A DNA stretch of 64,000 bases from Archaeoglobus sp. JdFR-37. Its GTDB lineage: Archaea; Halobacteriota; Archaeoglobi; Archaeoglobales; Archaeoglobaceae. Position numbers and translations under genes: made by a program. Shown in pieces: positions 25,080 to 44,023 of this stretch (position 1 is its first letter; each line of letters begins with the position of its first letter). The notes beneath the pieces were generated by a model. That model saw only the letters and a program-made list of their open reading frames with translations, made no database searches and was not told the DNA's origin. The stretch lies in the NCBI GenBank assembly GCA_002010215.1, contig MTMY01000047.1, positions 62,001 to 126,000 on the forward strand, in the 5' to 3' direction.

Positions 25080-25667
25080 CTAAATTCTTTTTCTGTTTTT
25101 CCTGAATATATCTAGCAAGCCCACGCCAGCCAATGCGAATACAACCATTGTCACTTCAAAGCCCGGTGATTTCTTCTCTGTAACTATTTTCTCTGGAGTT
25201 TCTGTCTTTTTCGGAGTTACTCTTGGTGTTGGTGTTTCTGTTACCCCTGAACCAGTTCCTGCGAAACTCCTAATATATTCTAGTACCTCAGATATTTCTT
25301 TATCAGACAAATCTGAAAATGCGGGCATGTTCCCCTTTCCATTCTTTATTGCATCTATCAGCTCTTCATCCGTCTCCTTTGCCCAGAATTCCTTGTTCGA
25401 AAAGTCAACACCATTCATTTTCTGGCCATCTCCCTTCTCTCCGTGGCACATGAGGCACTTCTTCTCGTATATCTCTTTTCCGGAGTCTTCGGAATCCTCA
25501 GAATCTGCGGAAGCCACAGGGATCACAGGAATCGCTATTATGGTAGCTAACACTACAAGCAAAATCAGAATTGCAGACACTCTTAGTATTCGTCTGACGT
25601 TTCCATCTATATTTACATCTATACTTACATTTTCCTTACTTCTCATCTCATCACTTTTGCTTTCCAT
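25080..25667 (-). CDS. Monohaem class I cytochrome c with PGF-CTERM archaeosortase signal
   Basis: Signal peptide, CLMCH, axial GNMP, Thr/Pro-rich linker, then SPGF + TM + basic tail. Confidence 0.88.
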   Translation of the reverse strand: MESKSDEMRSKENVSIDVNIDGNVRRILRVSAILILLVVLATIIAIPVIPVASADSEDSEDSGKEIYEKKCLMCHGEKGDGQKMNGVDFSNKEFWAKETDEELIDAIKNGKGNMPAFSDLSDKEISEVLEYIRSFAGTGSGVTETPTPRVTPKKTETPEKIVTEKKSPGFEVTMVVFALAGVGLLDIFRKNRKRI

Positions 25668-25671
25668 ACTA

Positions 25672-26553
25672 TCACCCCATAAAGACTGAGAGGAGTAGAT
25701 ACATCAGAAATACTGCCCCAAGATGGGGGCTGCTCAGCCTGAAAAGCCTATAATGGTTGGTTCGTACATTAAACAGCAATTTTACCAGCGGGTAATTTAG
25801 AAGTCCGATCATGAAGAGACTCAACCATATTGGCTCCAGCATCAAGAAGGCTGCAAAGCTGTCAGCGATATAGAGGGCCGTGAACACCAGTATCATCCTC
25901 AAAACTTTCTCTTTGTCACTGACGACTGGAAGCATCGGAACTCCTGCTTTTTTGTAATCTTCTTTGTAGAAGAGGGCAAGGCTCCAGATGTGTACGGGTG
26001 TCCAGAATATTATGAGCAGGGCCAGAATCAGGGGTTGAAAGGCTATCAACTCACCGGTCATTGCAGAGTGGGCCCCCAGAATCGGTGCAGCCCCTCCAGG
26101 AGAAGCGATCAGTATGTTGTAGGAAGTCTGAGTCTTCAGTCGGTAGTTGTAGGAAATAACAAAAACTGCCCCAATTATGCCCCAGAAGAGCACGTAGATG
26201 TTTATTGTGGCTGCAAGAATCAGACCGGAGAGCAGCAGCACCACTCCGAAAATCAACGCCTCCCTAGGGCTGACCTCTCCTTTTGGCAGAGGTCTGCTTC
26301 TTGTTCTACTCATTATGGAATCCATTTCTCTGTCTAAATAGCATGTTATGGTGTTTGTACCCATGCAGCTCAGCAATACAGATAGCGTTAGCACTCCAAG
26401 GGCCTTCGTGTTCTCTGCATCTCCACTATAAACAGAGAAAGCCTCAACTACAGCCGTCAGCAATAGCAGAGCGGACAGTTTGGGTTTTGTCAGGATGACA
26501 AAGCTCCTCGCTCTTGAAAAAAATTTAAAGAAATTATTCCAGATAGTGGCCAT
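25672..26553 (-). CDS. cyoE: Protoheme IX farnesyltransferase (heme O synthase, CyoE/CtaB family)
   Basis: LTKPK, DREMD..M.RT..RPLP.G, FWTPVHIWSLA and DYKKAGVPMLP motifs. Confidence 0.92.
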   Translation of the reverse strand: MATIWNNFFKFFSRARSFVILTKPKLSALLLLTAVVEAFSVYSGDAENTKALGVLTLSVLLSCMGTNTITCYLDREMDSIMSRTRSRPLPKGEVSPREALIFGVVLLLSGLILAATINIYVLFWGIIGAVFVISYNYRLKTQTSYNILIASPGGAAPILGAHSAMTGELIAFQPLILALLIIFWTPVHIWSLALFYKEDYKKAGVPMLPVVSDKEKVLRMILVFTALYIADSFAAFLMLEPIWLSLFMIGLLNYPLVKLLFNVRTNHYRLFRLSSPHLGAVFLMYLLLSVFMG

Positions 26554-28168
26554 ACTCGATCCCTCTGGCAAGCTTGCTGGCCATGAGGACTGCTATAATG
26601 CCGAGACCGATGTAAGCAACGGCTGACAGAGAGTATGGAATCCAGATGTTCCCGTACTGAAGGACGCTGCTGGACGAAAAGCTCCAGAGTCCAGTGGTTC
26701 CGATGAGGGCAAAGAATACGGCTAGCACAACCAAGAATGGAAAGCCCTCGAAGGTTGTAAACCAGCTCCTCTTTACCTCTGGAGGCTGATAGCTTTCGTT
26801 CTCCACCGGGAATAGCAGATGTCTCAGCATTGATGATGCAAGGTAGATATAGCCCAAGAACACCATGCCCCCTCCAATCACAATCCCAGGAACGAAGGGG
26901 AATCGGGCTTCCAGCACTTTCTGCCAGGGTTCCGCAAGAATCCAGTAGTGGTAAATCTGGACTGTTCCAGCAAGGCCGAAAGATGTAGCCAGCACTATCT
27001 GTCCCACAAACATGAGCCAGAAGGCCTTCTTACCCCATGAGACGAAGGTTCTGTCCACAGGCTTCCCTGTCAAGTCCGGGATTGCAAGATACAGCAGGGC
27101 TATTGCTCCCATTGCAAAGGCCATCATGCATTCGTGTCCGTGGCTGGGTGTAACCCAGGTTCCATGCTCCCACCAGTTAGTCCAGGGCCAGGTCTGGATT
27201 AAACCCAGAAGTGAAACGCCGACGAATCCGAATATCAGAATGCCAACCATGAAGTAGAGACTTGGAATGTTGGGGAAGGGCTGCTCGAGTTCTTTGGCAA
27301 TTTTCAGAGATTCGAGGGCCATAAGAGCTAGCGGAACAATCTCAAGAACGCTGATGACACCACCAAGCATTATCCAGAATGTGGGTGTTCCTATCCAGAA
27401 ATAGTGGTGCCCTTGTCCAACTATACCAGAAGTTGCAGCCAATATCACGTCGTAGAAAATATACTTATCAACCACCTTCCTGACCCTCGGATCAGGGATT
27501 ATCAGCATCAGAACTAGACCTATTGCCCCCGCATATGCGATTTCCAAGGCTCCTTCCACCCAGTAGTGAACTGTCCACCATCTGAAGTACTCACTGGTAA
27601 CCACGCTCTTGAAGAACAGGTTGCCTGGGATGTAGAGTAAGAAAGTGCCAGCTGCTCCAATCACAAGTGCCCACAGGGCTAGAGGCCACTCTCTCGGGCT
27701 GGGCAGGGTTTTTTGAACCACCAATGCAACAATCATGAAGCCTATGAAAATCAAGATGTCCCACAGCCTTCCTGCCTCAACATACTCCTTGCCTTCAACC
27801 AGCATTGGCTGATTTGCAACCCATATATTGTTCCCAGTCTGCATAACCGGCAGGGTTGCGAATATGCCTATGGTCACTAAAACCAACACCACTGCCAGCA
27901 ACTTAACCAGTCCCTGCCCCCATAAGTCTCTCTTAGACAGCATGGGTGTCATGTAGAACACAGCTGCAAAGGTAGCAGAGAAAAGCCAGAGTATCAGTGC
28001 ATTCAAGTGATAGGCTCTTATTAGGTTGAAATTTGCTATGCCCGATAACAGATCTGGGTTAATGTAGTAGAAGGCTAGAAATCCTCCGGCAATTAACTGA
28101 ACCAGAAACAATACCAGCGCTACAACAGCAAAGGGCAGTGCAAGCATTTGGGATCTGTACTCAGGCAT
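26534..28168 (-). CDS. norB: Nitric oxide reductase catalytic subunit (cNOR NorB)
   Basis: Heme-copper oxidase fold with H ligands: RAYHLN, HYWVEGALE (FeB Glu), GQGHHYFWIG, SVLE, SHGH; also GKEYVE loop. No qNOR N-terminal domain. Confidence 0.9.
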   Translation of the reverse strand: MPEYRSQMLALPFAVVALVLFLVQLIAGGFLAFYYINPDLLSGIANFNLIRAYHLNALILWLFSATFAAVFYMTPMLSKRDLWGQGLVKLLAVVLVLVTIGIFATLPVMQTGNNIWVANQPMLVEGKEYVEAGRLWDILIFIGFMIVALVVQKTLPSPREWPLALWALVIGAAGTFLLYIPGNLFFKSVVTSEYFRWWTVHYWVEGALEIAYAGAIGLVLMLIIPDPRVRKVVDKYIFYDVILAATSGIVGQGHHYFWIGTPTFWIMLGGVISVLEIVPLALMALESLKIAKELEQPFPNIPSLYFMVGILIFGFVGVSLLGLIQTWPWTNWWEHGTWVTPSHGHECMMAFAMGAIALLYLAIPDLTGKPVDRTFVSWGKKAFWLMFVGQIVLATSFGLAGTVQIYHYWILAEPWQKVLEARFPFVPGIVIGGGMVFLGYIYLASSMLRHLLFPVENESYQPPEVKRSWFTTFEGFPFLVVLAVFFALIGTTGLWSFSSSSVLQYGNIWIPYSLSAVAYIGLGIIAVLMASKLARGIEYGHYLE

Positions 28169-28172
28169 ACTA

Positions 28173-28844
28173 TCACCCCCTCGCATACCAATAAAACATT
28201 CCAAAGACCAGAAACACCGTAAACACCACTGTCAGCACCCAGTAAACGAGCCATGCGTCAAAGCTTTCGTACCACCTCACTGCATTCTTATCGAAGCTGG
28301 AGGCAAAGCTATAGTCATTGTCTTTCATAGGTGGCCAGTTGTTGGTGTTCAGATCTTTCAGATAGAGCATCCAAGCAGTCAGGGCATCGATTTCTTCATC
28401 TGACAAGTGGAAGGGCATGAACTTGGTTCCAGCGTAGGCAGAGAGCAGGGATTTGATATTGTCTCCATCTCCAGCCTTTCTGGCAACGTATGTCAGTTCG
28501 GGAGCATAGTATGCTCCATTACCCACGATAGTGTGGCAGCCCATGCAGTTGTAGTCGATGGCCACCTTCCACCCCTCGAGAGCAGTTGAACCTCTATAGG
28601 TTATAACCTCTGGGTCTGGGTTTCTCCCAGGATCAATGGACAGTGGCGTCAGTATCACAATCAGTAGAATGGCGAAGGCCACCATGAACTTTCCAAGCCT
28701 CTCGAAGGGTATTTCCTCCGCTTCAGCCCTCTTTGCCTTTCTGGCATAATGGACGTACAGAATCAATGCCGCTGCTATTCCCGCTATAAAGGCACTGAAA
28801 AAGAATATTTCATAGGCGTACGTCATGGTGTAATTTTTATTCAT
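28173..28844 (-). CDS. norC: Nitric oxide reductase cytochrome c subunit NorC
   Basis: NCMGCHTIVGNGAYYAPELT, axial FMP and NTNNWPP, all NorC-type motifs; directly upstream of norB. Confidence 0.9.
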   Translation of the reverse strand: MNKNYTMTYAYEIFFFSAFIAGIAAALILYVHYARKAKRAEAEEIPFERLGKFMVAFAILLIVILTPLSIDPGRNPDPEVITYRGSTALEGWKVAIDYNCMGCHTIVGNGAYYAPELTYVARKAGDGDNIKSLLSAYAGTKFMPFHLSDEEIDALTAWMLYLKDLNTNNWPPMKDNDYSFASSFDKNAVRWYESFDAWLVYWVLTVVFTVFLVFGMFYWYARG

Positions 28845-28860
28845 AATTAATTTCTTAATT

Positions 28861-28934
28861 TTCCCTAAAATTTAAGGGTATAATCCTTTTAAATATCAGT
28901 TTTCGGTCACAATCTTCCCTAAAATTTACGGGAA
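28861..28934. promoter_or_regulatory. Two copies of a 20-bp imperfect palindrome in the divergent norC/hemerythrin promoter
   Basis: TTCCCTAAAATTTAAGGGTA (28861-28880) and TTCCCTAAAATTTACGGGAA (28915-28934), 18/20 identical. Confidence 0.65.
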
Positions 28935-28966
28935 ATGGTTGATATACTTAACAGTGTTAAATTTGA

Positions 28967-29467
28967 ATGGTGTCGGGTATGGTTGAGCTTGACCCAATTG
29001 CAGAATTTAGAGAAGATCATAGAAAGGTGAGAGATGGATTGCTTGGGCTTGCAGATGCCCTTGAATCCAAGAATATTGGAAAAGCGGGAGAAATCCTTGG
29101 AGAGTTGAACAATTTGCTTGGGCCTCACTTCAGATTTGAAGAAGAAGCTTTGTACCCAGCCCTCAGGAGATTTTTAGGTGAATATGTGGATGAACTTTTG
29201 AAAGAGCATGATGGGGCGATAGAAGCAGCAAAAGAGCTTGCAAGATTGATCGGAAAAGGTGAAATTGGAGATGATGAGGCAAAGGAGGCTGCCAGCAAAA
29301 CAAGAGCACTTTTGGTGCATGTTTCTAACTGTGATGGATTAGCTATACTGGCTGAGAGGCTTGATGCTGCTGAAATTCAGAATCTTGGCAGAAAATTTGC
29401 TGAAATTAGAGATGAAGGAATCCCATTACTCGACTGGGCTGAGAAAATCAGGAAAAAGGGATCTTGA
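28967..29467 (+). CDS. Hemerythrin-like (HHE) di-iron protein
   Basis: EDH, HFRFEEEALYP and KEH motifs, plus a final HVSNCD. Confidence 0.85.
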   Translation: MVSGMVELDPIAEFREDHRKVRDGLLGLADALESKNIGKAGEILGELNNLLGPHFRFEEEALYPALRRFLGEYVDELLKEHDGAIEAAKELARLIGKGEIGDDEAKEAASKTRALLVHVSNCDGLAILAERLDAAEIQNLGRKFAEIRDEGIPLLDWAEKIRKKGS

Positions 29468-29889
29468 TGAGCAACAATCTTGCCATAATTTTTCATAGCG
29501 GAACATATGATCGGGTCAATCACGGATTGTCCTTAGCTTTAGCCTCTCTGGCCATGGGAAATAAGGTGAGGATGTTCTTTACCCACCTTTCTCTGAAATA
29601 CCTGATCAAAAACGAGTCAGAATCAGATTTTATGGCCCTTCTTACCTTCAGTGAAGATGATGAGTATTACAAAACCAGATTCGAGAACTTTCTAAGGGAA
29701 GGCCATATCCACAGCATTCAGGAGTTACTAAAGGAGTGCAAAACCCTGAAAGGGGAGATTTACGTTTGTGCAGCGTCGATGGCCCTTCTAAACATCACAA
29801 GGGATGAGCTTATTCCTGAAGTAGACAAGACAGCTGGCATAACCACCTTCCTGTCAGAGGTTAACGGTTTTCAGATTTTGTTTATTTGA
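29464..29889 (+). CDS. DsrE/DsrF-like (DsrE2/peroxiredoxin-like) protein
   Basis: AIIFHSG.YDR, V.MFFT, YVCAASM and AGITTFL...LFI motifs. Overlaps the hemerythrin stop. Confidence 0.8.
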   Translation: MMSNNLAIIFHSGTYDRVNHGLSLALASLAMGNKVRMFFTHLSLKYLIKNESESDFMALLTFSEDDEYYKTRFENFLREGHIHSIQELLKECKTLKGEIYVCAASMALLNITRDELIPEVDKTAGITTFLSEVNGFQILFI

Positions 29890-30068
29890 TTTTACCTGAT
29901 TTTACTAAAATCTGTTTTGAAATCCTTTTTGAACCTCTGAAGGGAGTTTCACAATCTTATAATCTTAAACCCAATTACTTTAAATCTCCTACCATCATCA
30001 AATCTACTCCAAGAAAGTTGTAATATCAGAAATCTGAAAACTGGAAAAATTCGAGAAAAAAATTATGG

Positions 30069-31397
30069 TCAATGTATCTCGCTTCCGTATCTCTTTTTCA
30101 GCATGAAGGATATTGTTATGGATATCAGTGCTAGAGCCACGTAAACAACAAAACCTCTGGCGTATCCTAGCTCTCCGAACATATCCACGAAAACTCCTAG
30201 GATTGGTGGAACTACGAATCCTCCGAAGGCGCCCAGACCACCGACCCATCCGCTTGCACCTCCAACAGCCTCTGGCACATATTTGGCTACGAGCTTGAAC
30301 ACTGCAGCGTTGGCTATGCCCATTCCAGCACCGATGAAAATTTCTCCGATTAAAGCGGGACCGAAGCTTGTGGAGAACATTAGTATTGCGGCTCCAATTA
30401 GAACTAGGGAGAAGCTCATTATTGCTGTTCTCTCTCCACCCATTCTGTCACTGAGATGCCCACCGTAAACTCTGATAAAGGATGCCAGCAATGAAAAGCC
30501 GACGCCACCAAGAATGCCGGCAGTCCTTATGTCAAAGCCGTGAAAAAGTCGCCAATAAGTGGGGAACCAGGTGGTCAGAGCCAGGAAACCACCGAAGGAT
30601 GTGAAGTAAAGAGCAACAAGAGCCCAGGTTCTGCTAATCCTTGCAGATATCTTGAGGGCATCGATGAGAGTCCCTGAAGGGAACAACTCTTGGCCAAGTT
30701 GCTTTGCAACACTGACTGCCTCATCTCTCGGCACACCCTTCTTTCTTAGCTGGAAATAGTAGGCATCATGGGCAATTATGGCGTAGATAATTGTTCCTGC
30801 CAGTAAAAACAGGAACCATGCAGCATAAGCGCCTGCAAGCCCTAAAGCAGCCAGTGCAAAGGGAATTATCAGAGTAAAGAAGCCTGGAGCAGTGTTCCCA
30901 AGTCCGGCATAGGTGCCCAAAGCCCAACCCTGTCTTCTCTGGGGGAACCAGTAGGAGGTCTGAGGGATGCCAACTGAGAATGTGGCAACTCCACACCCGC
31001 TCAGAGCCCCGAACAGAAGGATGAATGGATACATCTCCATTGTGAGATTATCTGGGTAGTATGCAAATAGTATTGCTGTAAGTCCTGCCATACCTATTAC
31101 AGACAGCGATAGCAGCGTTAGTAGAGGTTTCTTGCCACCAACCTTGTCAACCCATGCACCGAATGGAATCCTGAGTAAGGAACCGGTCAGCTGGGGTATT
31201 GCCACAAGCAATCCCAGCATGGCTCCAGAAAGCCCCATCACATCCTTGAACTCCTTGGCGGTTGGCCCGTAGAGGGCGACAGCAGCAAAGCCGACGAAGA
31301 ATCCAAGAGTTGCAGCTATCAGTCCTTCAGTTGGATTTCCTTTTAGCCCATATTTATTTTTCAGCTCCTCAACACTAATTTCCATCATTTTCACCAC
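30069..31397 (-). CDS. narK: Nitrate/nitrite MFS transporter
   Basis: GSLLRIPFG, G.ALG..AGLGN, FGGFLAL and GWVGGLGAFGGF nitrate signatures. Confidence 0.92.
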   Translation of the reverse strand: MVKMMEISVEELKNKYGLKGNPTEGLIAATLGFFVGFAAVALYGPTAKEFKDVMGLSGAMLGLLVAIPQLTGSLLRIPFGAWVDKVGGKKPLLTLLSLSVIGMAGLTAILFAYYPDNLTMEMYPFILLFGALSGCGVATFSVGIPQTSYWFPQRRQGWALGTYAGLGNTAPGFFTLIIPFALAALGLAGAYAAWFLFLLAGTIIYAIIAHDAYYFQLRKKGVPRDEAVSVAKQLGQELFPSGTLIDALKISARISRTWALVALYFTSFGGFLALTTWFPTYWRLFHGFDIRTAGILGGVGFSLLASFIRVYGGHLSDRMGGERTAIMSFSLVLIGAAILMFSTSFGPALIGEIFIGAGMGIANAAVFKLVAKYVPEAVGGASGWVGGLGAFGGFVVPPILGVFVDMFGELGYARGFVVYVALALISITISFMLKKRYGSEIH

Positions 31398-31485: not shown

Positions 31486-32166
31486 TCACTTCCCCAGTTG
31501 CTTCTCTCTCCTTACCCACCTGTAAAGAATCGGCGGGTCTTTCAAGTAATCCAGTGGAAGGAACAGAAAGTGTACCAGTTTTGTGAAGGGCAGTACTGCC
31601 AGAATCAGAAAGGCTCCAGCCACATGTAATTTGAACACCAGTGGGAGTCCGGAAACAAAACCTATTTGAGGGTTCAGAGTCAGCAGCGAGTACAGCCAGG
31701 GAACAGCTGTATGGAGGTACCATTCCATCCCCCACCTGACAAAAAGCCCCATGTAAACTCCAGTTGCTGCCTGAAGAAGTATGAGCAAGAGCAGTACCCA
31801 GTCCGCATAGCTGGTAACAGCTCTGACGACGCCTGAAAATCTCCGCACGAGCAGTATAATACTTCCAAAAAGAGTCATCAGACCGAGACCTAAAGCTATG
31901 CTTTCCAGAGCGATGAGAGCTGATAAATCGGACAGCAAGGACTGGATAGTTGAGGGGAAAAGAAAACCTATAATGTGGCCGGCAAGAATCAGTACCACAC
32001 CATAGTGCCAGGGAATACTACCCCAGTACAGACTCCTCCTCTCCAAAAACTGTGTGGAAAATGTACTCCAGTCCAGCCTGTTGGAGAAGTAGCGGTATGG
32101 TGTCACGAAGATTGCGAGAGCTATAGCAAAATACGGCAGTACAGCAAAAATCAGAACATCGAGCAT
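31486..32166 (-). CDS. narI: Respiratory nitrate reductase gamma subunit (cytochrome b)
   Basis: STQFLE, PWHYG....GH and KLH...PFTKLVH: four heme b His ligands. Confidence 0.95.
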   Translation of the reverse strand: MLDVLIFAVLPYFAIALAIFVTPYRYFSNRLDWSTFSTQFLERRSLYWGSIPWHYGVVLILAGHIIGFLFPSTIQSLLSDLSALIALESIALGLGLMTLFGSIILLVRRFSGVVRAVTSYADWVLLLLILLQAATGVYMGLFVRWGMEWYLHTAVPWLYSLLTLNPQIGFVSGLPLVFKLHVAGAFLILAVLPFTKLVHFLFLPLDYLKDPPILYRWVRREKQLGK

Positions 32167-34228: not shown

Positions 34229-37200
34229 CTCCTCAGCTTCTTTACAACAACGTAGGTGTCCCTGTTCACACCTGTCGGCCCCCAGTAGTTGAAGTAGTAG
34301 CTAAACTGGGCATAGCCTCCAACCATCAGAATTGGCTTTAGGCGGGTCCTAGTAACGCTGTTGTGTACTCCGCCTCTCCTCCCAGTTTTCTTGGACTTAG
34401 GTATGTAGAGTGTCCTTTCTGGAGCATGGTACATTATGGCCATTCCTCTGGGGACTCTGGCAGACACAACGGCTCTACAGACAATTACACCGTTGCTGTT
34501 ATATACTTCAACCCAGTCGTTATCGTTTATTCCGGCAGTTCTGGCATCCTCATCGTTTATCCAGACCACCTGACCGCCTCTGGATATTGTAAGCATTCTC
34601 AGATTGTCGTAATAAGTGGAATGAATGCTCCACTTCCCATGAGGTGTTATGAAATTCAGAATAAGGCCTTCATCACCCTCTATCTCGTCCAGCATCCTTG
34701 GACTTATTTTAGGCTTGAATGTTGGCAGCATTTCATAGAAAGCGAGATAATAGGGATGATCTAAGTAGAGCTCCTGTCTTCCGCTAAGCGTTCTCCAAGG
34801 TATTTCATATTCCACATTCAGGGTATATGGTGCATAAGTTCTTCCGTCGTTTATGTTCCCACTCCAAACTGGGCTGGTTATAATGCGTTTTGGCTGAGCC
34901 TTAACGTCTTCGAACGTTATCCTATAGCTCCGATATGGCTCCACTATCTGGCTTAAAGGCTTTCCTATTTTCTTTTCCAGGTTCTTGAATCCTCTGTAGC
35001 TTATCTCACCATTTGTTTCGGGAGCGAAGGTAAGAATGATGTTAGCCACGGTCACATCTTCCTCGAGAGAGACGTATCTGTTGCCATTCCATTCAATCGT
35101 TGGAAATTCATTGAGAATTTCCTCGTAAATATCGCTGGCATCCCAACTAACGCCGTGGGCACCTAGAGTTTTTATTCCTGGCCCGAGAGTGATGAAGCGT
35201 TTATAGAGATTGGCATAATCCCTCTCCACGATTATAAGTTTGGGCATAGTTTTGCCTGGTATGGCCTCACATTGACCGAGTTTCCAGTCCTTAACGTCAC
35301 TCTGTGTTAGTTCTTCCGGTGTGTCGTGTAGCAGGGGTGCCATTATTACATCTTTGACAGGCTTCGGGAAGTGTTTCGATGCCAGTTCGCTGAACTTCTT
35401 TGCTATAAGCTTGAAAATTTCCCAGTCAGATTTTGCTTCCCAAGCAGGTGATGTAGCCCCTCCCAAGCAATTTATGAACGTGTGGAGGTCCGTTGACTGA
35501 ATATCGTTCTTCTCATACCAGTGAGCTGCTGGCAGGACGATATCTGAATAGACGGCAGTTGAATCCATCCTGAAGTTAAGATCAACTATGAGGTCAAGCT
35601 TTCCTTCTGGCGCATCTCTCCATACTACTTCGCTGACAAAGTCCTTTGCAACTTCTCTCGCCATTACGTTGCTGTTTGGAGCTCCAACAAAATGCTTCAG
35701 GAAGAACTCATGACCTTTCGGGCTTGAACCTATGGCATTTCCTCTCCAGATGAACCAGATTCTTGGCCAGTTCTCTTCGGCATCAGGGTCTTCGATAGCA
35801 AACTTCAACTTACCTTCCTTCAATTTGTCCACAATCCATTTTCTCACTTCATCGTCACTCTTTGCTCCCTCTTTCTGGGCTTCCTCTACCAATTTTAAGG
35901 GGTTCTCGTTGAATTGTGGATAGAAGGGCAACCATCCTAGGCGAACTGCCTTGACGTTGTAATCTATTGTGTGCTCAGGCAACCCATCTCCATCAACGGG
36001 TTCAATGTAACTGCACCTGTCGTACCTCCACTGGTCGGTGTGGACATAGTAGAAACTCGGGGAGTTCTGGAGGCGTGGTGGTTTCACCCAGTCCTGAGCA
36101 AAAGCAACGACAGCCCACGAAGCAACTGGAGCCACCTTCTCCTGACCAACGTAATGGGCTAACCCCCCACCATTTTTGCCTACACTTCCTGTAAGTATCA
36201 GAGCTGTTATAACAGCCCTGTAATTCAGGTCGTTGTGGAACCAGTGATTCAGACCTGGGCCGATGATAGCTAAGTTTCGCCCCTCAGTCTTCTCTCCATT
36301 CTCAGCCCATTCTCTGGCTATTTTGATTACAGTCCTTCTGCCAACTTTAGTATACTTCTCTTGCCATGCTGGTGTGAAGGGTTTATTATCGTCGTAGCTT
36401 TCAGGATAGTCCCCTGGCAGGCCCCGAGAAATGCCGAGATGTGCTGCCAGTAAATCGAAGACTGTTGTAACAACTACTTCCCCTTCCTTAGTTTTTACAA
36501 CCTTTGCAGGAACGCCTCGTATACTCTCACCGTATTCGTCATAATAAAATCTCACCATTACTGTTTCTTCACCCATTAGACTGAGTTTTACGTCTATCTC
36601 TTCTCCATCTACTGCGTCCTTCATTTCCAGATTCCATTTACCTTCAATACTGCTCCATCTGAAGCCGATGCTTCCGTAGGGTATTCTGACCTCTCCATTG
36701 TCGTCTATTACACAGAGAATCCATTCAGCATTCTCAAGTACTTCACCCTTCTCAATTTCAGATGCCCTCAGAAAGCGATCCGGGACGTAAACATCTCCAT
36801 CTTTTCTAAGTTTTACTAGGAACGGCATATCTGTGTATTTCTTGGCGTATTCTAGGAAGTATGGAGTCTCTTTCTCGAAATAAAACTCTTTCATAATGAC
36901 ATGGTTGGCAGCCATCCAGAAGGCAGCATCATGTCCCTGTTCAACTGGTACCCATACGTCTGCATACTTGCTGACTTGGCTGTAGTCTGGAGAGAACACA
37001 ACAACTTTTGCACCTCTATATCTGGCTTCAGAAAGATAGTGGGTGTCAGGCGTCCTGGTCATATTCAGGTTGGAGCCCATTATGGCTATGAATCCGGCAT
37101 TGTACCAGTCAGCTGACTCGTTAACGTCGGTCTGCTCACCCCATATTTGCGGTGAAGCTGGTGGTAAGTCGCAGTACCAGTCATAAAAGCTTAGGCAGAC

Positions 37201-37788
37201 TCCTCCAAGAAGCTGGAGAAATCGGGCTCCAGATGCATAGCTCACCATCGACATGGCAGGGATGGGTGTAAAACCGATTACTCTGTCAGGTCCGTATCTC
37301 TTAATGGTATAGAGGGTTGATGCGGCTATTATCTCTACTGCTTCATCCCAGTCAGCCCTTCTGAATCCACCCATTCCCCTCTTTTTTACATACTTGTTTC
37401 TGAGCTCAGGATTTTCAACTATGCTCTTCCAAGCTTCAACAGGGTCACCATATTTTGCCTTTGCCTCCCTCCAAAGGTCCAAGAGAGCTCCCCTTATGTA
37501 GGGAAACTTTGGACGGAGTGGGCTGTAAAGGTACCATGATGCGCTAATTCCTCTTTGGCACCCTCTTGGCTCATAATTTGGTATTCCGGGGCTGAAACTG
37601 GGGTAATCTGTAGCTTGAAGCTCCCAAGTTACGATACCATCCTTTACGTAAATCCACCAGCTGCAGCTTCCGGTGCAGTTTGCTCCGTGAGTACTCCTAA
37701 CAACTTTGTCATACTGCCACCTGTTGCGGTAGAATTCCTCCCAGCTCCTTAATTCTGGAGAAAACACATCCTTTATACGTTCTGACAT
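34225..37788 (-). CDS. narG: Respiratory nitrate reductase alpha subunit (no Tat signal)
   Basis: RSTHGANCTGSC, EPRGCQRG, FYDWYCDLP (Mo-ligand Asp) and TPHGKWSIHS motifs. Confidence 0.97.
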   Translation of the reverse strand: MSERIKDVFSPELRSWEEFYRNRWQYDKVVRSTHGANCTGSCSWWIYVKDGIVTWELQATDYPSFSPGIPNYEPRGCQRGISASWYLYSPLRPKFPYIRGALLDLWREAKAKYGDPVEAWKSIVENPELRNKYVKKRGMGGFRRADWDEAVEIIAASTLYTIKRYGPDRVIGFTPIPAMSMVSYASGARFLQLLGGVCLSFYDWYCDLPPASPQIWGEQTDVNESADWYNAGFIAIMGSNLNMTRTPDTHYLSEARYRGAKVVVFSPDYSQVSKYADVWVPVEQGHDAAFWMAANHVIMKEFYFEKETPYFLEYAKKYTDMPFLVKLRKDGDVYVPDRFLRASEIEKGEVLENAEWILCVIDDNGEVRIPYGSIGFRWSSIEGKWNLEMKDAVDGEEIDVKLSLMGEETVMVRFYYDEYGESIRGVPAKVVKTKEGEVVVTTVFDLLAAHLGISRGLPGDYPESYDDNKPFTPAWQEKYTKVGRRTVIKIAREWAENGEKTEGRNLAIIGPGLNHWFHNDLNYRAVITALILTGSVGKNGGGLAHYVGQEKVAPVASWAVVAFAQDWVKPPRLQNSPSFYYVHTDQWRYDRCSYIEPVDGDGLPEHTIDYNVKAVRLGWLPFYPQFNENPLKLVEEAQKEGAKSDDEVRKWIVDKLKEGKLKFAIEDPDAEENWPRIWFIWRGNAIGSSPKGHEFFLKHFVGAPNSNVMAREVAKDFVSEVVWRDAPEGKLDLIVDLNFRMDSTAVYSDIVLPAAHWYEKNDIQSTDLHTFINCLGGATSPAWEAKSDWEIFKLIAKKFSELASKHFPKPVKDVIMAPLLHDTPEELTQSDVKDWKLGQCEAIPGKTMPKLIIVERDYANLYKRFITLGPGIKTLGAHGVSWDASDIYEEILNEFPTIEWNGNRYVSLEEDVTVANIILTFAPETNGEISYRGFKNLEKKIGKPLSQIVEPYRSYRITFEDVKAQPKRIITSPVWSGNINDGRTYAPYTLNVEYEIPWRTLSGRQELYLDHPYYLAFYEMLPTFKPKISPRMLDEIEGDEGLILNFITPHGKWSIHSTYYDNLRMLTISRGGQVVWINDEDARTAGINDNDWVEVYNSNGVIVCRAVVSARVPRGMAIMYHAPERTLYIPKSKKTGRRGGVHNSVTRTRLKPILMVGGYAQFSYYFNYWGPTGVNRDTYVVVKKLRR

Positions 37789-38585
37789 TATTTCACCCTC
37801 CCGTAATATATAGCTGCGACAATCATGGCCAGCAGGAAAAGTCCGAGACCTGACATTGGATAGATTGTCGTACTTCTTTCTTTGGATTCAGCAGCTTCCT
37901 TGAAAAATTCGATTAATGCAGCAATTTCATCGTCTGTCAGCCTCTTTCCGGCATAAATATCTTTCATAACCGGAAACTGGAGACTTTTAAGTGCACCGTA
38001 AACTCCCTTATCCCCCAATCTTGTGTAAAGGTCACTGAGGTCTGTTGCAAGACTCCCACCACTAATTCCAGCACTGTTAACAGAGTGGCATGAGATGCAC
38101 GGCGCTCCACCATTTACGAATCTCTTTTTTCCCACAAACAGAGCTTTTCCAAGTTCAGGATCAGATGCAGAAGATGGTACTGGCTCAGGTGTCTTTTCAA
38201 CTGGTGTCTCTTGAATCTCCTGTACTGTCTGAGTTTCTTCAGGTCTTGGTTCAGTTGCGGAGAACTGTTTTAGGTACTCTATTATCTTGACAGCTTCGTC
38301 TTCTGTCACACCCAGATTTGGCATCTGAAATCCGTATTTGGAAATTAACTCCATCTGTATCGGATCATTCTCGGCTGCAAGTTTATCGGGCTCCACTATT
38401 ACTCTTATGAGCCATTCTGTATCTCTTCTGTCGGTTACACCCAGTAAATCAGGCCCTGCAAGGTCACCACCACCGATGGTATGGCATCCTGCACACTTGG
38501 CAGAATACAACTCCTCGCCACTTTGAGCATATACGATATCTAACGTAAATATCAAAAATACAAAAAATATCAGAGACCTCTTCAC
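37788..38585 (-). CDS. Membrane-anchored dihaem cytochrome c (NarC-like)
   Basis: CAGCH...QMP and CISCH...VM; signal peptide and C-terminal TM. GTG start at 38585 with GGTGA RBS; stop overlaps the narG ATG. Confidence 0.85.
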   Translation of the reverse strand: MKRSLIFFVFLIFTLDIVYAQSGEELYSAKCAGCHTIGGGDLAGPDLLGVTDRRDTEWLIRVIVEPDKLAAENDPIQMELISKYGFQMPNLGVTEDEAVKIIEYLKQFSATEPRPEETQTVQEIQETPVEKTPEPVPSSASDPELGKALFVGKKRFVNGGAPCISCHSVNSAGISGGSLATDLSDLYTRLGDKGVYGALKSLQFPVMKDIYAGKRLTDDEIAALIEFFKEAAESKERSTTIYPMSGLGLFLLAMIVAAIYYGRVK

Positions 38586-38801
38586 ATTATCACCCCAGAC
38601 CACCACCAAGTTTATTCCCACACTATAGATTTCCACCATCGAGAGCTTTTTTCTTCGGGTAAAACAGATCTGCTGTCGTCAACTAAAAACAGGCGTTCCA
38701 TGACTCTCCACTGGTCTATGGATAGTCTGTGACACATATTTTCCACAATCATAAATGATGGTTGGAGAGTATATAAAGTTTTTCCCGGAGAATTTCGTAA
38801 A

Positions 38802-39596
38802 TTAAGACTTACCATATGTAACATAGAGCAGAACCCCTGTGAAAATGGCTCCACCGAGGATGTTTCCTAGAGTGACAGGAATCTGATTCCATATCCACCA
38901 CTGATAAACACTTATGTTGGCTCCAAGCATCATGCCTGTGGGGATTACAAACATATTTACTACAGAGTGTTCAAAGCCCAGAGCGAAAAAAGTCATTATT
39001 GGCAGCCATATGGCGGATATTTTACCAAATGTTGAAGTGGAGACCCAGCTGAAGACTGTACCTAAAGTAACCATCCAGTTACAGAGTATTCCTTTTACAA
39101 AGGCTGCAATCCATCCGTTTATACCGGCTGTCTCGTAAGCCAGTGTTTTTGCCTCTGCAATAGCAATTATCTTGTCTGCAAGAGGAGTCTGCGAGAGTGC
39201 AAACCCCTTTGTTATTGAAATCACCAAAAAGATTCCGTAGAAAACGCTGCCTACAAGATTTGCGATGAAGACCCACCCCCAGTTTCTGAGCAGGTTGTTG
39301 AGGTCAATCTTTCTGTCTGCTGAGGCCATTGGAAGAAGAGCGAAGTTTCCGGTGACAAGTTCGAGGCCAAGTAAAACAATCATTGCAAACCCCACAGGGA
39401 ATACTGCTGCTGACACGAGAGTTGCCGCTCCACCAGAGAAACCGTTTGAGACGGTGAATGCAAAGGATGTGGCATATCCTAAGAATACACCTGAAAGGAA
39501 CCCTCGTATCAGCATGTCCTTCCATTGCAATCCCGCTTTTTTCTCTCCAACCTTGACGGCCTCCCTTACCAGCTCAACAGGTGGTACATAATCCAT
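38802..39596 (-). CDS. Formate/nitrite transporter (FNT; NirC/FocA family)
   Basis: FPVG, LELVTGNF, KGILCNWMV and GFEHSVVNMF motifs. Confidence 0.92.
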   Translation of the reverse strand: MDYVPPVELVREAVKVGEKKAGLQWKDMLIRGFLSGVFLGYATSFAFTVSNGFSGGAATLVSAAVFPVGFAMIVLLGLELVTGNFALLPMASADRKIDLNNLLRNWGWVFIANLVGSVFYGIFLVISITKGFALSQTPLADKIIAIAEAKTLAYETAGINGWIAAFVKGILCNWMVTLGTVFSWVSTSTFGKISAIWLPIMTFFALGFEHSVVNMFVIPTGMMLGANISVYQWWIWNQIPVTLGNILGGAIFTGVLLYVTYGKS

Positions 39597-39600
39597 CCAC

Positions 39601-40293
39601 TCACCCCCTAATGTAAACCCTAAGTTCTGTCAGAAGCCTAGTTAGAACGATGAGTACTATCAAGGCTCCTGCCAGATCAGACATAATATGAGTAAACAGC
39701 AGTCCAAAGTTGGCAGATAATCCTGCAATTGCAATTAGTGTGAACGTTACTATAATTCCCTTCAATGCCTCAATCATGTCCAGAGGCTGCATCATGTGCC
39801 TTTTCATCAATTTTCTATACCTCATTAGAAGTAGAGATGTGGTAAACATCAGCAGGGAGATTATGAGAATGAGAAGTGCTAAGTACCCCATTATACGACC
39901 AGTATCCATCAGACCTTCCAAATGATATATCAACAACCAGTAAATCGAGATGTATGTGAGAACGTCAAGAAAACTTCCGTTTGGAACCACAAAGAATCCT
40001 ACTTTGCTCTTGACACCATAAAGTACTACAATTACTATAGGAATAGACATCACAATTACTCCCTTCATGAGTAGTTTCATCAAAGAGAGGTTTTCTAAGA
40101 GAAAACCGATGGAAACTGTGAAGTATATCAGGCCTAGGAGGATTAGAAGTGCAAATATTCCAAGAGTTATCATCTCCCAGTAGCTGTTTAAAATGGCAAT
40201 TCTCTCCTTATCATAAGAGTATAGGGCCATGAGGGTATAAAGTGATACTACAAGAAGCAGTAGAGGCACAGTCACAAAGTCCACGAATCCCAC
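39601..40293 (-). CDS. Uncharacterised multi-pass membrane protein
   Basis: 230 aa with about 7 hydrophobic segments; 4 bp upstream of the FNT gene; no recognised motif. Confidence 0.6.
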   Translation of the reverse strand: MGFVDFVTVPLLLLVVSLYTLMALYSYDKERIAILNSYWEMITLGIFALLILLGLIYFTVSIGFLLENLSLMKLLMKGVIVMSIPIVIVVLYGVKSKVGFFVVPNGSFLDVLTYISIYWLLIYHLEGLMDTGRIMGYLALLILIISLLMFTTSLLLMRYRKLMKRHMMQPLDMIEALKGIIVTFTLIAIAGLSANFGLLFTHIMSDLAGALIVLIVLTRLLTELRVYIRG

Positions 40294-40500: not shown

Positions 40501-41538
40501 TCATGGGGGGATTACATGCACTTTGTTTTTTCTGAAACCAACTTTCACCTCATTTCTAGTTCCCAGTTTTAATTTGTGATATGCATGGTCTGGGATGAGA
40601 GCAGTTACGTATTCAGAGCGAAGTTTCACAACAATCTCGTGCATGCCTCCGGTATTAACTCTCCCGATAATTCTGCCGTGGTAAACATTTCCTTGAAGAG
40701 CTTCTCCTAATGGCTTCCCATCTCTTACAATCATGACATATTCTGGTCTGATACAGAATTCTACTTGATCTCCTGGCTTGAATCCACTATTTGGAGCATA
40801 AACAACTCCTTCACTCCACTCTATTTCAGCCCATTTGTCTGCTTTTCTGACGATTCCATTGAAAACGTTTTCAGCACCCATAAACTCTGCAACAAGCCGG
40901 TTTGCTGGCTTTTCATAAACTTCCTCTGATTTCCCTGTCTGGAATATTCTGCCGTTTATCATCACTGCAATCCTATCAGCGATAAGCAACGCTTCCTTTC
41001 TGTTATGGGTGACGTATATCACAGGAATTTTAAATTCCCTTAAAATTGATCCCATCTCCACGATAAGCCGCTTTCTCATAAATTCGTCAACACTGCTCAT
41101 AGGTTCATCCAGGAGCAGAATTCTTGGCCTGTTGATGAGGGCTCTGGCTAGAGCAACCCTCTGCTTCTCTCCACCACTAAGCTGTTCTACAGGTTTCTCG
41201 AGGAGATGGGATATTCCCAGCATCTCGACGACTTCATCGACCTTACTGTTTCCACCATATGTGAGGTTCTTCCTTACAGTCATATGGGGGAAAAGTGCAA
41301 AATCCTGGAAAACGTAACCAATTTTCCTTTTCTCTGGTGGGAGTACGGAGATATCCTCACCGTCGAGAATTATCCTACCCTCATCCTGCTGGATCAGTCC
41401 CGAAATTATGTTCAGCAGCGTCGTCTTTCCGCTCCCGCTGGGGCCCAGCAAGGCGGTAACTCCCTCAAACTTGGCAGTCACTTCCAGCTTGAAGTTCCCA
41501 AACTTTTTAACCACGCCTTCCAGCTCCAACAACTCCAT
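40501..41538 (-). CDS. Molybdate/tungstate ABC transporter ATPase (ModC/WtpC)
   Basis: GPSGSGKT, LSGGEKQR and LLLDEP motifs, C-terminal TOBE-like domain; operon context. Confidence 0.88.
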   Translation of the reverse strand: MELLELEGVVKKFGNFKLEVTAKFEGVTALLGPSGSGKTTLLNIISGLIQQDEGRIILDGEDISVLPPEKRKIGYVFQDFALFPHMTVRKNLTYGGNSKVDEVVEMLGISHLLEKPVEQLSGGEKQRVALARALINRPRILLLDEPMSSVDEFMRKRLIVEMGSILREFKIPVIYVTHNRKEALLIADRIAVMINGRIFQTGKSEEVYEKPANRLVAEFMGAENVFNGIVRKADKWAEIEWSEGVVYAPNSGFKPGDQVEFCIRPEYVMIVRDGKPLGEALQGNVYHGRIIGRVNTGGMHEIVVKLRSEYVTALIPDHAYHKLKLGTRNEVKVGFRKNKVHVIPP

Positions 41539-42286
41539 CACCCATAAGCCTGATGGCCACAACAAACAGCAAACTCAACAGCCACAGCATCAAAGCTATT
41601 GGCGCTGCTCTCTCAATACCTCCCCCGAGATATGAAGTGTATAGATATATTGGCAGTGTTTTGGGAAAGTATGCCAGCATGAAAGTAGCACCAAACTCTC
41701 CAATACTTCTAACGAAAGTCATCATTAGCCCGGCAATTATACCGTGTTTGGCAAGGGGGAGGGAGATTCTGATGAATGTTTCAAGTCCGCTCTTCCCCAT
41801 GAGCCTGCTGGCAAACTCAAGTTTCGTATCAACTTCTTCAAATGCCGCTTTAGCGGAAATTATTGTGAAAGGAGATGCAACTGCCAATTGAGCTAACACA
41901 ACAGCAAAGAATGAACGGGTGAGTGGTATCCCCATCTTATCTGCATAACTCCCAACAAGATTGGCTGGAGAGAAGATGGAGAGCAGAAGTAGGCCTGTTA
42001 CTAGCGGTGGGAGTACTATGGGTGATATAATTATAGCCTCAAATAGCCCGTTCCACCTGCTTTCGCTTCTAGCCAGAAAATATGCCAGAGGAACGCCAAG
42101 AATGGCGGAGATGACAGTGGTTAGTGCAGCGGATGATATGGAGACTACGAAAGAATCTATGAGGTCCTTTTCGTAAATGGCTGCAACTGTTGCAGGAGTG
42201 ACATTCATAAGAGCAGCAACAGCAGGAAGAAGGAGATACGCAAGGAGGATTAATGAAAGGTACTTAACCAGCTTTGCAGAAATCAT
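41507..42286 (-). CDS. Molybdate/tungstate ABC transporter permease (ModB/WtpB)
   Basis: PLAYFLAR, PIVLPPLVTG and RSIGEFGAT motifs. Confidence 0.88.
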   Translation of the reverse strand: MISAKLVKYLSLILLAYLLLPAVAALMNVTPATVAAIYEKDLIDSFVVSISSAALTTVISAILGVPLAYFLARSESRWNGLFEAIIISPIVLPPLVTGLLLLSIFSPANLVGSYADKMGIPLTRSFFAVVLAQLAVASPFTIISAKAAFEEVDTKLEFASRLMGKSGLETFIRISLPLAKHGIIAGLMMTFVRSIGEFGATFMLAYFPKTLPIYLYTSYLGGGIERAAPIALMLWLLSLLFVVAIRLMGDGVVGAGRRG

Positions 42287-42292
42287 AACTCT

Positions 42293-43135
42293 TCACCTCC
42301 GCCTGACCATGGTGTTAAAACCGTACTCCCCCAGAATTCTTCGCCCATCCTCTAGCATAAAGCTGACAAAGTCTCTTCCATCCTTGCCCGCCCATTTCGT
42401 TGCTGCAATTCCGTAGAGAATTGCCATCCCTTTATACACCCTCTCTCCAACCTTCACTTCTACCATCCGGTAGAAATCCTGGTAATCTAGGGAACTCAAA
42501 TCAATCTGCTCCGGGAGCGACAGGAAGGGGAGATTGTGGGTTGACGCCATGTTTTTGTAGAGGAAAGCTATGTCGATGGTCCCTGCCTTCAGGTTGGCAA
42601 GCAAATCGGTTTCAAGCCCAAAAACCAGCATTTTTTCGACTAGTTCATCATAAAATTTGCGCCCATAGTATAGCTCGGCCAGCTTCAGCGTGAGAAGAGT
42701 GCGGTAGCCCAGAGGATCGGAAGAAGGGTCGCTTATTCCTGCCTGATAATCCCCGGAAAGTAATAAATCAATCCAGTTTTCCTCTTTGATGTCCACCCCT
42801 CTGTGGGCGATTACGATACTGTTGGATGCGAAGATGGCATAGCTGCTTATAACTTCATCCTTCAGCTCGTCCAGCAGTGAGGCATCGGCGGATATCACAA
42901 CATCCGGCCTTCTGTAACCATCCTTCACAAGGTTGATGATTGTAACCGACCCCTTCGCTTCAGCATAAACATCAATCCCTACTTTTTTCTCAAAGGCCGG
43001 AACGATTCCCTCTTCCATCTCCTTTTGCAGGCTGGCAGCATACATAACTTCAATACTCTTCTTCCCGGAACACCCTATGAGTGCAAAGACAGACGTTAAA
43101 GCTGCAAATTTCATGAAATCCCGGCGTGAAAGCAT
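42293..43135 (-). CDS. Molybdate/tungstate-binding Tat lipoprotein (WtpA/ModA)
   Basis: SRRDFMK Tat motif plus LIGC lipobox; YAASL, GS, SDP..DPLGYR and E.DL motifs of WtpA type. Confidence 0.88.
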   Translation of the reverse strand: MLSRRDFMKFAALTSVFALIGCSGKKSIEVMYAASLQKEMEEGIVPAFEKKVGIDVYAEAKGSVTIINLVKDGYRRPDVVISADASLLDELKDEVISSYAIFASNSIVIAHRGVDIKEENWIDLLLSGDYQAGISDPSSDPLGYRTLLTLKLAELYYGRKFYDELVEKMLVFGLETDLLANLKAGTIDIAFLYKNMASTHNLPFLSLPEQIDLSSLDYQDFYRMVEVKVGERVYKGMAILYGIAATKWAGKDGRDFVSFMLEDGRRILGEYGFNTMVRRR

Positions 43136-43184
43136 CGAAACCTTTAAATTTTTTACCTTAATTTAAGCCTTTTGTTGAATAGAT

Positions 43185-43592
43185 ATGTTTAACAGCACGT
43201 TCCTGACGGAAAGGCAGCTGGAAGTGTATATCAGGAGAAAGAGGGGAGAAAGCCTGGCTAAGATAGCGAAAGAGCTTGGAACTACGAGAAGTAATGTATG
43301 TGCTCTGGAAAAGGCAGCAAGGAGAAATATAGAAAGGGCTTACAACACTATAAAGCTGGTTGAGAGCCTTTTGTATAAATCTGTGGTGACAGTGCCTTCT
43401 GGAACAGATCTCTACGACATTCCAGGTATAATTTACAGAAGAGCTGATGAGTTGGGAATAAAAATTCAGATGAGTGGGCCCATGCTATTAAAGTACATAG
43501 TTGAGCACTGCAGCGATAAACTTAGGAACAGACAGGTTTTGGGAGAGATAACGATAGGTATAGACCAAAATGGCAGCATAGTTGTCCTCTGA
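43185..43592 (+). CDS. tfx: Tfx-family DNA-binding protein
   Basis: FLTERQLEV...IAKELGTTRSNV..LEK.A..NI.RA.NT and GTDLYDIP..IY..AD..GIK. Confidence 0.88.
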   Translation: MFNSTFLTERQLEVYIRRKRGESLAKIAKELGTTRSNVCALEKAARRNIERAYNTIKLVESLLYKSVVTVPSGTDLYDIPGIIYRRADELGIKIQMSGPMLLKYIVEHCSDKLRNRQVLGEITIGIDQNGSIVVL

Positions 43593-43660
43593 TTCAGGAA
43601 CTAGCCCGGCAAAAGCAGATAGAAAAGATTTTTCAATGATACTTGAAAGTAAAAAACTCT

Positions 43661-44023
43661 ATGTCTGAAGAGGTAGATCCTTGGAAAGGTTCAAAAATCA
43701 TTCTAGTTGTTCTAATTGTACTTGGCATCGCTTTTGCAGGATGCGGTGAGAAAGGAGGGGAAATCAAATCAACTCCAGAACCGACTCTATCGACTCCAAT
43801 GGGGCCTCTAGAAAGCCAGCAGGAAGTTGCTCAGCAGTTACATGGTAAGGGGACATGCGATATGTGTCATGATGCGCCGACACTGGAAGAAATGCGCTCA
43901 GGAGACCACAAATTTGCATTTGAAAGAGATCCTGACTTGCACAAAAACCTCTGCAGCAAGTGCCATGAGGTTAGCAGCTTTTGTGGAAAGTGCCATCCTG
44001 TTCCAGAGGTTATAAAGGGCTAA
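43661..44023 (+). CDS. Small trihaem c-type cytochrome lipoprotein
   Basis: FAGC lipobox; CDMCH, CSKCH and CGKCH, plus extra His residues. Confidence 0.8.
   Translation: MSEEVDPWKGSKIILVVLIVLGIAFAGCGEKGGEIKSTPEPTLSTPMGPLESQQEVAQQLHGKGTCDMCHDAPTLEEMRSGDHKFAFERDPDLHKNLCSKCHEVSSFCGKCHPVPEVIKG

Follow-up and report, generated by a model that had tools for sequence, protein, structure and literature searches.

The stretch of the Archaeoglobus sp. JdFR-37 genome analyzed here (contig MTMY01000047.1, positions 62,001 to 126,000; 64,000 nucleotides, hereafter the window) carries between positions 25080 and 44023 a nitrate reductase operon of the narCGHJIK type, genes for a nitric oxide (NO) reductase, and several cytochrome, transport, and NO-stress genes. 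Nitrate and NO reductases that coexist without a standard nitrite reductase leave the step from nitrite to NO unaccounted for. In this study, we compared the region with the rest of its genome (G000; 1.97 Mb in 52 contigs, 94.5% complete; C numbers denote contigs) and with relatives (the other G codes). We propose, at a probability of roughly 45%, that the missing step is carried out by an octaheme cytochrome of the HAO family that has no oxidative tyrosine and is encoded on another contig, C7. The nitrate reductase and NO reductase genes likely share a candidate operator, a palindrome that also precedes the octaheme gene in several relatives.

Nitrate and NO reductase modules of the window

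The block comes after the exosome operon, and open reading frame lists and family scans placed all the genes that a preliminary description of the DNA had named there, including four cytochrome genes with 1, 1, 2, and 3 CxxCH motifs, the seven that it had counted (Table 1). An eighth CxxCH match in the block is an Fe-S motif within NarH. Three genes were absent from that description, namely those for the hemerythrin-like protein, its DsrE-family partner, and a 230-aa membrane protein. The gene order is backed by run X1, in which a single contig covers the whole stretch with no differences, by contigs of run X3 that span the rrp42-norC and dsrE-narH junctions, and by one contig of run X4 that extends from the end of dsrE into narK; X1 and X3 may themselves be sources of this DNA.

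The nitrate reductase module has the features of the Thermus-type NarCGHI complex, with a diheme narC gene placed first, a NarI subunit, and a NarG that lacks an RR pair in its first 50 residues. Because the twin-arginine signal is absent, NarG probably faces the cytoplasm. In all five relatives read, narC opens the nar operon. The narG gene is found in 8 of 92 genomes of the family, seven of them over the cut-off and the eighth, G044, with a split copy that was taken as present; a partial match below the cut-off in G035 was dropped.

NorB and NorC look by sequence like a cytochrome c-type NO reductase (cNOR) in which every FeB and heme ligand is present, so that NO reduction and heme type are predicted. 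In alignments to 3o0r and 4xyd, NorB (556 aa) retains H66, H213, E217, E221, H266, H267, E288, H355, and H357; the FeB site thus contains three His and a Glu (H213, E217, H266, and H267, plus E221 and E288) and has no Tyr at His+4. The heme c subunit is separate rather than fused as in qNOR, with norC directly upstream and a single CxxCH. The heme O synthase gene adjoins norB in G000, G036, G037, and both Pyrohabitans loci (L071 and L072) and does not do so in eight other loci. G000 yielded no further heme-copper oxidase, so the synthase likely serves the NO reductase. Prenylated hemes occur in an archaeal qNOR. The monoheme cytochrome c encoded at the end of the module is likely, judging from its sequence, the electron donor to NorC. 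Ferroglobus placidus is scored cNOR 1 and N2Ored 0 in a survey that includes a related putative N2O-reductase family (PMC11214002).

NorB of this type occurs in 3 of the 92 family genomes (a 30%, qNOR-like match in G009 was dropped) and groups with its counterparts in G036 and G037 (97/99). Relatives at 50-86% identity comprise 11 records from four archaeal phyla with unrelated gene contexts, suggesting exchange among archaea of hot habitats; the closest, at 86%, belongs to a record with the title Ferroglobus sp. The nor module does not stand out from its surroundings in GC or GC3. The qNOR-like gene of G009 (L009, contig C95) apparently lies in two frames. A congener without norBC, G054, encodes a B-family-like heme-copper oxidase (L067:5771-8778 on its contig C1; a CuA subunit, a subunit I with His-Pro-x-Val-Tyr, and ctaB), which is unexpected in a family regarded as anaerobic and is absent from G000.

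The preliminary description regarded the region as self-contained, but this does not hold, as the nar and nor modules lie apart in relatives and the best candidate for the nitrite step lies outside the window. In G036 the two modules are unlinked, about 880 kb apart, and in G037 they are on separate contigs with other neighbors; in both, the module norC-norB-ctaB-cytochrome c is separate from nar. In G054 and G042, nar is present without an adjacent nor. The congener G054 carries the locus of G000 at the matching site after rrp42, but without window positions 25015-30054 and without an FNT gene; it keeps a decayed FNT fragment and 15 bases that match the end of the cytochrome gene. Because these remnants persist, loss in G054 is likelier than gain in G000. 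The region joins a Thermus-type narCGHJIK operon, a Ferroglobus-type module of norCB, heme O synthase, and cytochrome, and a common NO-stress pair of hemerythrin and DsrE; their clustering is in itself ordinary.

The remaining genes of the block include two that could be considered as the missing enzyme, the 230-aa membrane protein and the triheme cytochrome. The former is present in G054 and absent from the nar loci read in G036, G037, G042, and G056. Neither could be placed in a family, and within the loci read both are confined to genus g1, so that neither is a good candidate for a step that G000 and Ferroglobus have in common. Right after the cluster (window 44096-47239) lie genes for a short-chain fatty acid transporter, for a 204-aa protein resembling encapsulin (below cut-off), and for a protein resembling chorismate lyase.

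Table 1. Genes and candidate operators of the block, with the octaheme gene of contig C7
Feature	Position	Strand	Support
Monoheme cytochrome c, C-terminal anchor	25080..25667	-	PF13442; 1 CxxCH; same neighbor in G036 and G037
Heme O synthase (CtaB/CyoE-like)	25672..26571	-	TIGR01473, 190 bits (cut-off 210)
NorB, catalytic subunit of cNOR	26534..28204	-	Best PDB matches cNOR NorB 4xyd and 3o0r
NorC, monoheme subunit	28173..28844	-	PF00034; 1 CxxCH; shares 82-83% identity with G036 and G037
Palindromic candidate operator, copy 1, between norC and hemerythrin gene	28861..28880	.	23.4 bits, training site
Palindromic candidate operator, copy 2, between norC and hemerythrin gene	28915..28934	.	26.5 bits, training site
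Hemerythrin-like (HHE) di-iron protein	28967..29467	+	PF01814; 166 aa
DsrE-family protein, usual partner of hemerythrin	29464..29889	+	PF13686
NarK-type nitrate/nitrite transporter	30069..31397	-	TIGR00886, E 7.5e-46, below cut-off
NarI, membrane cytochrome b	31486..32166	-	PF02665
NarJ chaperone	32151..32765	-	TIGR00684, over cut-off
NarH	32762..34228	-	TIGR01660, 645 bits, over cut-off
NarG	34225..37788	-	TIGR01580, 1605 bits (cut-off 1084)
NarC-like diheme cytochrome c, Thermus-type fourth subunit	37788..38639	-	2 CxxCH
Palindromic candidate operator before narC	38782..38801	.	19.1 bits; 14.6 leave-one-out
Formate/nitrite channel (FNT)	38802..39596	-	PF01226, 245 bits
230-aa membrane protein	39601..40293	-	No Pfam or NCBIfam match; Atlas clusters without family
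WtpA/B/C-like molybdate/tungstate ABC importer (wtpCBA)	40501..43135	-	Beside nar in G054, G056, and G042
Tfx-family regulator	43185..43592	+	TIGR00721, over cut-off; divergent from wtpA
Triheme cytochrome c, predicted lipoprotein	43643..44023	+	3 CxxCH; same place only in G054 among relatives read
Octaheme cytochrome, HAO family	C7:22220-23716		8 CxxCH (heme-motif census); PF13447

The missing nitrite-to-NO step and a candidate octaheme cytochrome of contig C7

The gap between the nitrate and NO reductases is real. As the preliminary description stated, the window holds no copper or cd1 nitrite reductase, NrfA, or NosZ; likewise, none was found genome-wide in G000, so that the canonical nirK or nirS copy elsewhere that would have overturned its reading did not appear. 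The NirK model TIGR02376 reaches 26 bits in the whole of G000, on one 138-aa cupredoxin of contig C3 (cut-off 296); a control set containing H. volcanii gives one genome over the cut-off. The d1 model has no match in the G000 genome. It recovers d1-type propellers in 2 of 301 other archaea, a control that is only partial for NirS because the two proteins have no heme c and are not true NirS; as queries, they match only cupredoxin domains in G000. In the same genome, the pentaheme NrfA family (PF02335) has three short matches, all below cut-off, NosZ has no full-length propeller plus CuA (only CuA-like domains match, and the NosZ model hits nothing but the 138-aa cupredoxin), and nosD and nosL have no full match. 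In none of the 92 family genomes, several of which are single contigs, was nirK, nirS, or napA found. The gap itself is already known and has been published for F. placidus since 2011, when its genome paper stated that both known NO-forming types are missing and that a new enzyme may exist (PMC3236036); the row for this organism in a 2024 survey reads cNOR 1, narGHI 1, nirK 0, nirS 0, and nosZ 1 (PMC11214002, supplement file 7). As a separate observation, loci L107:868-2661 and L108 (G378 and G215) encode proteins in which a CuA-like cupredoxin is joined to a propeller of the cytochrome d1 type and a heme c motif is missing, a possible NirS variant.

Several other proteins of G000 were considered and set aside. 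A siroheme protein on C10 scores below both the NirA and Sir cut-offs and lies in a sulfur-assimilation context, without the nitrogen-assimilation context of an assimilatory NirA; by eye, we take its neighbors to be APS reductase-like, ATP sulfurylase, DsrE, MoeB, and TusA. For a 207-aa NIR_SIR/4Fe-4S protein encoded on C30, the site for the palindrome described below is middling (11.5 bits), and the counterparts of this protein in G036, G054, G056, and G037 have no site of at least 11 bits. Prismane matches were read as CO dehydrogenases by length and sequence, and no separate Hcp was recognized. An octaheme on C17 is not of the HAO family. The cupredoxin genes at the start of C3 look like nos accessory genes, yet no full nosZ, nosD, or nosL match accompanies them; this set (L012:2447-5868; cupredoxin, CuA-like, and cupredoxin-polyferredoxin genes) is kept in G000 and G054 without nosZ.

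The preliminary description had called for a search for octaheme reductases, and a census of heme motifs shows an octaheme gene on C7. Its product combines eight CxxCH motifs with HAO-family similarity, and a signal peptide and C-terminal membrane anchor, both read by eye, point to an outward-facing, membrane-anchored protein. The PDB relatives are all of the HAO family, the best being 4qo5, which we take to be the Ignicoccus octaheme, followed by the reductive Kuenenia protein 6h5l; a fold search agrees, with a poor model (pLDDT 52). Asp237-His238 is invariant in 14 rows, as is His421, and no Tyr occurs in residues 400-432, so that the cross-linking tyrosine is missing in a register against Nitrosomonas HAO that rests on a weak alignment. 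His versus Tyr has been described as the marker of reductive versus oxidative HAO proteins, in a tree that includes the HAO of F. placidus (PMC12758564). The Tyr-less HAO of anammox bacteria (HAOr) reduces nitrite to NO when the mediator is mild and to ammonium when it is strong (PMC8042395), and HAOr correlates with NO formation (PMC12485887). Archaeal HAO-family proteins have been noted before, in the part of the paper available without a nitrite-to-NO role in Ferroglobus (PMC4429474).

The C7 query finds HAO-family genes in 19 of the 92 family genomes, including seven of the eight with narG; the eighth, G042, has a more distant member that was found blind through the palindrome. Altogether, 8/8 narG genomes have the family, versus 12/84 of the others. 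Among 11 archaeal genomes with this type of NorB, which may overlap the 92, 8 have the HAO family, 3 have narG, and none has nirK or nirS. In G036, G037, G013, G014, G016, G035, and G052, hao is the first gene of an operon that also holds a tetraheme cytochrome gene and nrfC, with nrfD next where read. In G000, hao stands alone, and a tetraheme-NrfC-NrfD set follows a petB/petD pair on C29 (L143, 17567-21413). A second such set lies on C42 with 5-, 10-, and 12-heme cytochromes and a Rieske-like gene, and C15, C16, C27, and C30 encode a number of cytochromes with 10 to 16 hemes, of which some are truncated where a contig ends; these suggest metal respiration.

A palindromic candidate operator

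The gap between norC and the hemerythrin gene contains two copies of a 20-bp palindrome, TTYCCKAA-N4-TTMGGRAA, versus 0.04 matches expected in the window. Related words are found before narC in six genomes (G000, G054, G036, G037, G056, and G042, the last five with the narC word of G000) and before norC and nosZ in G036. With a matrix built from nine sites in nar, nor, and nos promoters only, leave-one-out scores are 11-24 bits, and the 99th percentile of 857 G000 promoters is 10.7. The hao promoters did not enter the training, and they score 23.5 bits in G042, 20.7 in both G036 and G037, and 15.5 in G035, with a 99th percentile of 12.5 in 848 G000 promoters. Their mean in seven narG genomes (the G045 promoter was left out of scoring) is 12.4 bits, or 10.5 without G042; shuffled matrices average -1.3, and 0 of 2000 reached either mean. 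In G036, the narC, norC, and hao sites are 3 of 11 places with at most one mismatch. The top untrained promoter of G000 (16.6 bits) is common to a DUF2249-DUF438-hemerythrin gene and a phosphoesterase gene, and the unlinked hemerythrin-dsrE pair of G056 has a 15.7-bit site. These sequence matches make it likely that the nitrate reductase and NO reductase genes share one operator, which we treat as a candidate. In two Thermoproteota genomes, 16-bit matches lie before HAO-family genes (L083:2833 and L088:783); the norC promoters of Thermoproteota loci show no clear site.

A winged-helix/PAS protein might read the palindrome. It occurs in 10 of the 92 genomes, all of which have the HAO family, and is encoded divergently from hao in five. 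Against such a role, G035 and G056 have sites without the protein, and in G000, G054, and G041-G043 its gene faces other genes, with no site of at least 8 bits there. In G000 (L119:1438-4351 on C4), this regulator has an invariant His in its PAS domain and is divergent from a CooS-type gene, and in five relatives from hao.

Sources of NO and comparison with known systems

In the model that we favor, every flux step of which is inferred, quinol would feed NarI, NarGH would reduce nitrate in the cytoplasm, and NarK and the FNT channel would export nitrite. The octaheme would then reduce nitrite outside the membrane and release NO, which would be its main product or would leak from ammonification. 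NarC, which in Thermus is described as an electron bridge to Nir and Nor (PMC7694296), would pass electrons together with the monoheme cytochrome to NorC, and NorB, possibly with prenylated heme O, would make N2O as the end product, with hemerythrin and DsrE handling NO damage inside the cell. We hold a broader version more tentatively. In this third route, a membrane-anchored, Tyr-less HAO octaheme fed by a tetraheme-NrfC-NrfD quinol dehydrogenase would be the NO-forming nitrite reductase of the Archaeoglobaceae, the heme-O cNOR would have been exchanged among vent archaea, and a previously undescribed archaeal N-oxide regulon based on the palindrome, possibly read by the winged-helix/PAS protein, would cover nar, hao, nor, nos, and NO-stress genes.

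A number of observations weigh against assigning the step to the octaheme. Twelve of the 20 family genomes with HAO genes have no narG and 17 of the 20 do not have this NorB; conversely, the HAO family is absent from 3 of the 11 NorB genomes. Related genomes do not count as independent cases. An octaheme assigned to the same Pfam family is listed for Geoglobus ahangari (PMC4600277), an organism incapable of nitrate or nitrite respiration, a related Tyr-less HAO of Nautilia serves ammonification (PMC3701875), and HAOr itself yields ammonium under strong reductants (PMC8042395). The regulatory evidence is also uneven. The hao promoter of G000 scores 4.3 bits, a value reached by 9% of the background, those of G054 (8.5), G056 (9.4), and G044 (-0.4) are weak, only 5 of 28 distinct HAO promoters reach at least 15 bits, and the second and third hao paralogues of G036 score -0.5 and 4.0. 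The palindrome is also found before cooS-type genes and inside genes, it overlaps a B recognition element (BRE)-like sequence, and the pattern beats a reversed control in only 2 of 5 genomes.

The main rival to the octaheme is a doubtful but serious one, in which NO is a by-product, formed by NarG acting on accumulated nitrite or by nitrite reacting with Fe(II) or sulfide; the cNOR would then be mainly a detoxifier, the octaheme would make ammonium or something else, and nitrite would be the main end product. NarG does form NO from nitrite, with a Km of about 5 mM (PMC9052748), and the many multiheme cytochromes of G000 are consistent with iron cycling. The nor module shares its promoter with the NO-stress pair, whose relatives lie beside DUF2249, NifS, TusA, Crp, and NorB-type genes, two NorB genomes (G099 and G100) have narG and no HAO family, and the weak hao site of G000 fits as well. 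By-product NO, however, leaves unexplained why hao is preceded by strong operator sites in G036, G037, and G042 and why every narG genome has the HAO family. Seven NorB genomes have the HAO family but no narG over the cut-off, and nosZ is retained in G036 and G037 (preceded by the motif in G036), which is easier to reconcile with respiration than with detoxification alone.

The preliminary description also allowed for a noncanonical enzyme encoded in the window itself, but the one local candidate belongs to a widespread NO-stress pair and the best candidate is on C7. This local candidate is the hemerythrin. It could work in the manner of YtfE of E. coli, a di-iron nitrite reductase that forms NO slowly, and supply the cNOR encoded opposite; catalysis of this kind is possible but less likely, and we consider this source of NO improbable. 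In its favor, the gene has the double operator in common with norC, it is present in G036, G056, and G042, and its putative di-iron ligands are conserved (H18, H54, E58, H81, C122, and D123 invariant in 56 rows, and H118 conserved). The PF01814 domain of YtfE makes NO from nitrite, but its turnover is only about 1-6 per minute with milder reductants (PMC9052748). The window protein has PF01814 only, without the ScdA_N domain and its Cys pair, and compared with the YtfE metal site of four His and two bridging carboxylates it has C122/D123 at the second bridge, where Glu is expected. Its model (pLDDT 92) has HHE proteins as nearest folds (E 0.015-0.04), with no YtfE chain among the fold matches listed. 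G054 and G095 lack the gene, and in G042 it is split. Among 82 related loci, dsrE accompanies it in 63, DUF2249-type genes in 32, NifS in 15, TusA in 13, NorB-type genes in 9, Crp in 8, HAO-family genes in 5, and narG in only 1, a context that argues for a widespread NO-stress pair. In three metagenome loci (L193, L203, and L204), hemerythrin-dsrE follows an HAO-family octaheme directly or one small gene later. Still less probable is that NO comes from other community members or the environment, with independent nar and nor modules. The spread of this NorB over four phyla in unrelated contexts and the absence of narG over the cut-off from 8 of the 11 NorB genomes would fit, but nar and nor promoters have a motif in common, and in culture F. 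placidus converts nitrite to N2O by way of NO (PMC3236036, citing Vorholt 1997). The least probable source is a canonical nirK or nirS gene within the 5% of the genome missing from the assembly. The assembly is incomplete, in 52 contigs, and the positive control did not include a true NirS, but neither gene was found in any of the 92 family genomes or the 11 other NorB genomes, and F. placidus is listed as nirK 0 and nirS 0 (PMC11214002).

Should the octaheme perform the step, archaeal denitrification would join anammox bacteria as a setting of HAO-type NO formation, and N2O producers of hot subsurface and vent habitats would go unseen in surveys based on counts of nirK and nirS. Both the octaheme, as a specific candidate, and the palindrome, as a candidate operator, can be tested in cultured F. 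placidus, which has been called the sole Archaeoglobales member shown to use nitrate (bioRxiv 10.1101/2021.03.26.437165). In a search that lay outside the subscription literature and covered papers in part, we found none in which the enzyme missing from Ferroglobus is proposed to be an HAO-family protein or in which the palindrome is described.

The closest known system is that of F. placidus (Ferp_0311-0315 and Ferp_1340-1341; PMC3236036), which likewise has narGHJI with a transporter, NorBC, and no cd1 or copper nitrite reductase. Unlike in F. placidus, nar and nor are adjacent in G000, together with hemerythrin-dsrE, FNT, and the Mo/W importer, and nosZ, nosD, and nosL were not found in G000. 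The nar operon resembles narCGHJIK(T) of Thermus thermophilus in its order narC-G-H-J-I-K, its diheme NarC, and its cytoplasm-facing NarG (PMC7694296), but here the host is archaeal, nirS and nirK are missing, and the candidate operator is different. The window hemerythrin shares with E. coli YtfE/RIC a PF01814 di-iron domain and an NO-stress context (PMC9052748), but it lacks ScdA_N, has His-x3-Cys-Asp in its last helix, and is paired with DsrE. The C7 octaheme has eight hemes, an Asp-His after heme 6, and no cross-linking Tyr, as do Kuenenia HAOr (6h5l), 4qo5, and the Nautilia reverse-HURM protein (PMC8042395 and PMC3701875). In contrast to these, it has a C-terminal membrane anchor, its partner in the relatives of G000 is a tetraheme-NrfC-NrfD set, not a diheme or NapC-type protein, and its product may be NO or ammonium. 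Thus, the modules and the gap are known, and what is new is a testable octaheme candidate and a candidate operator.

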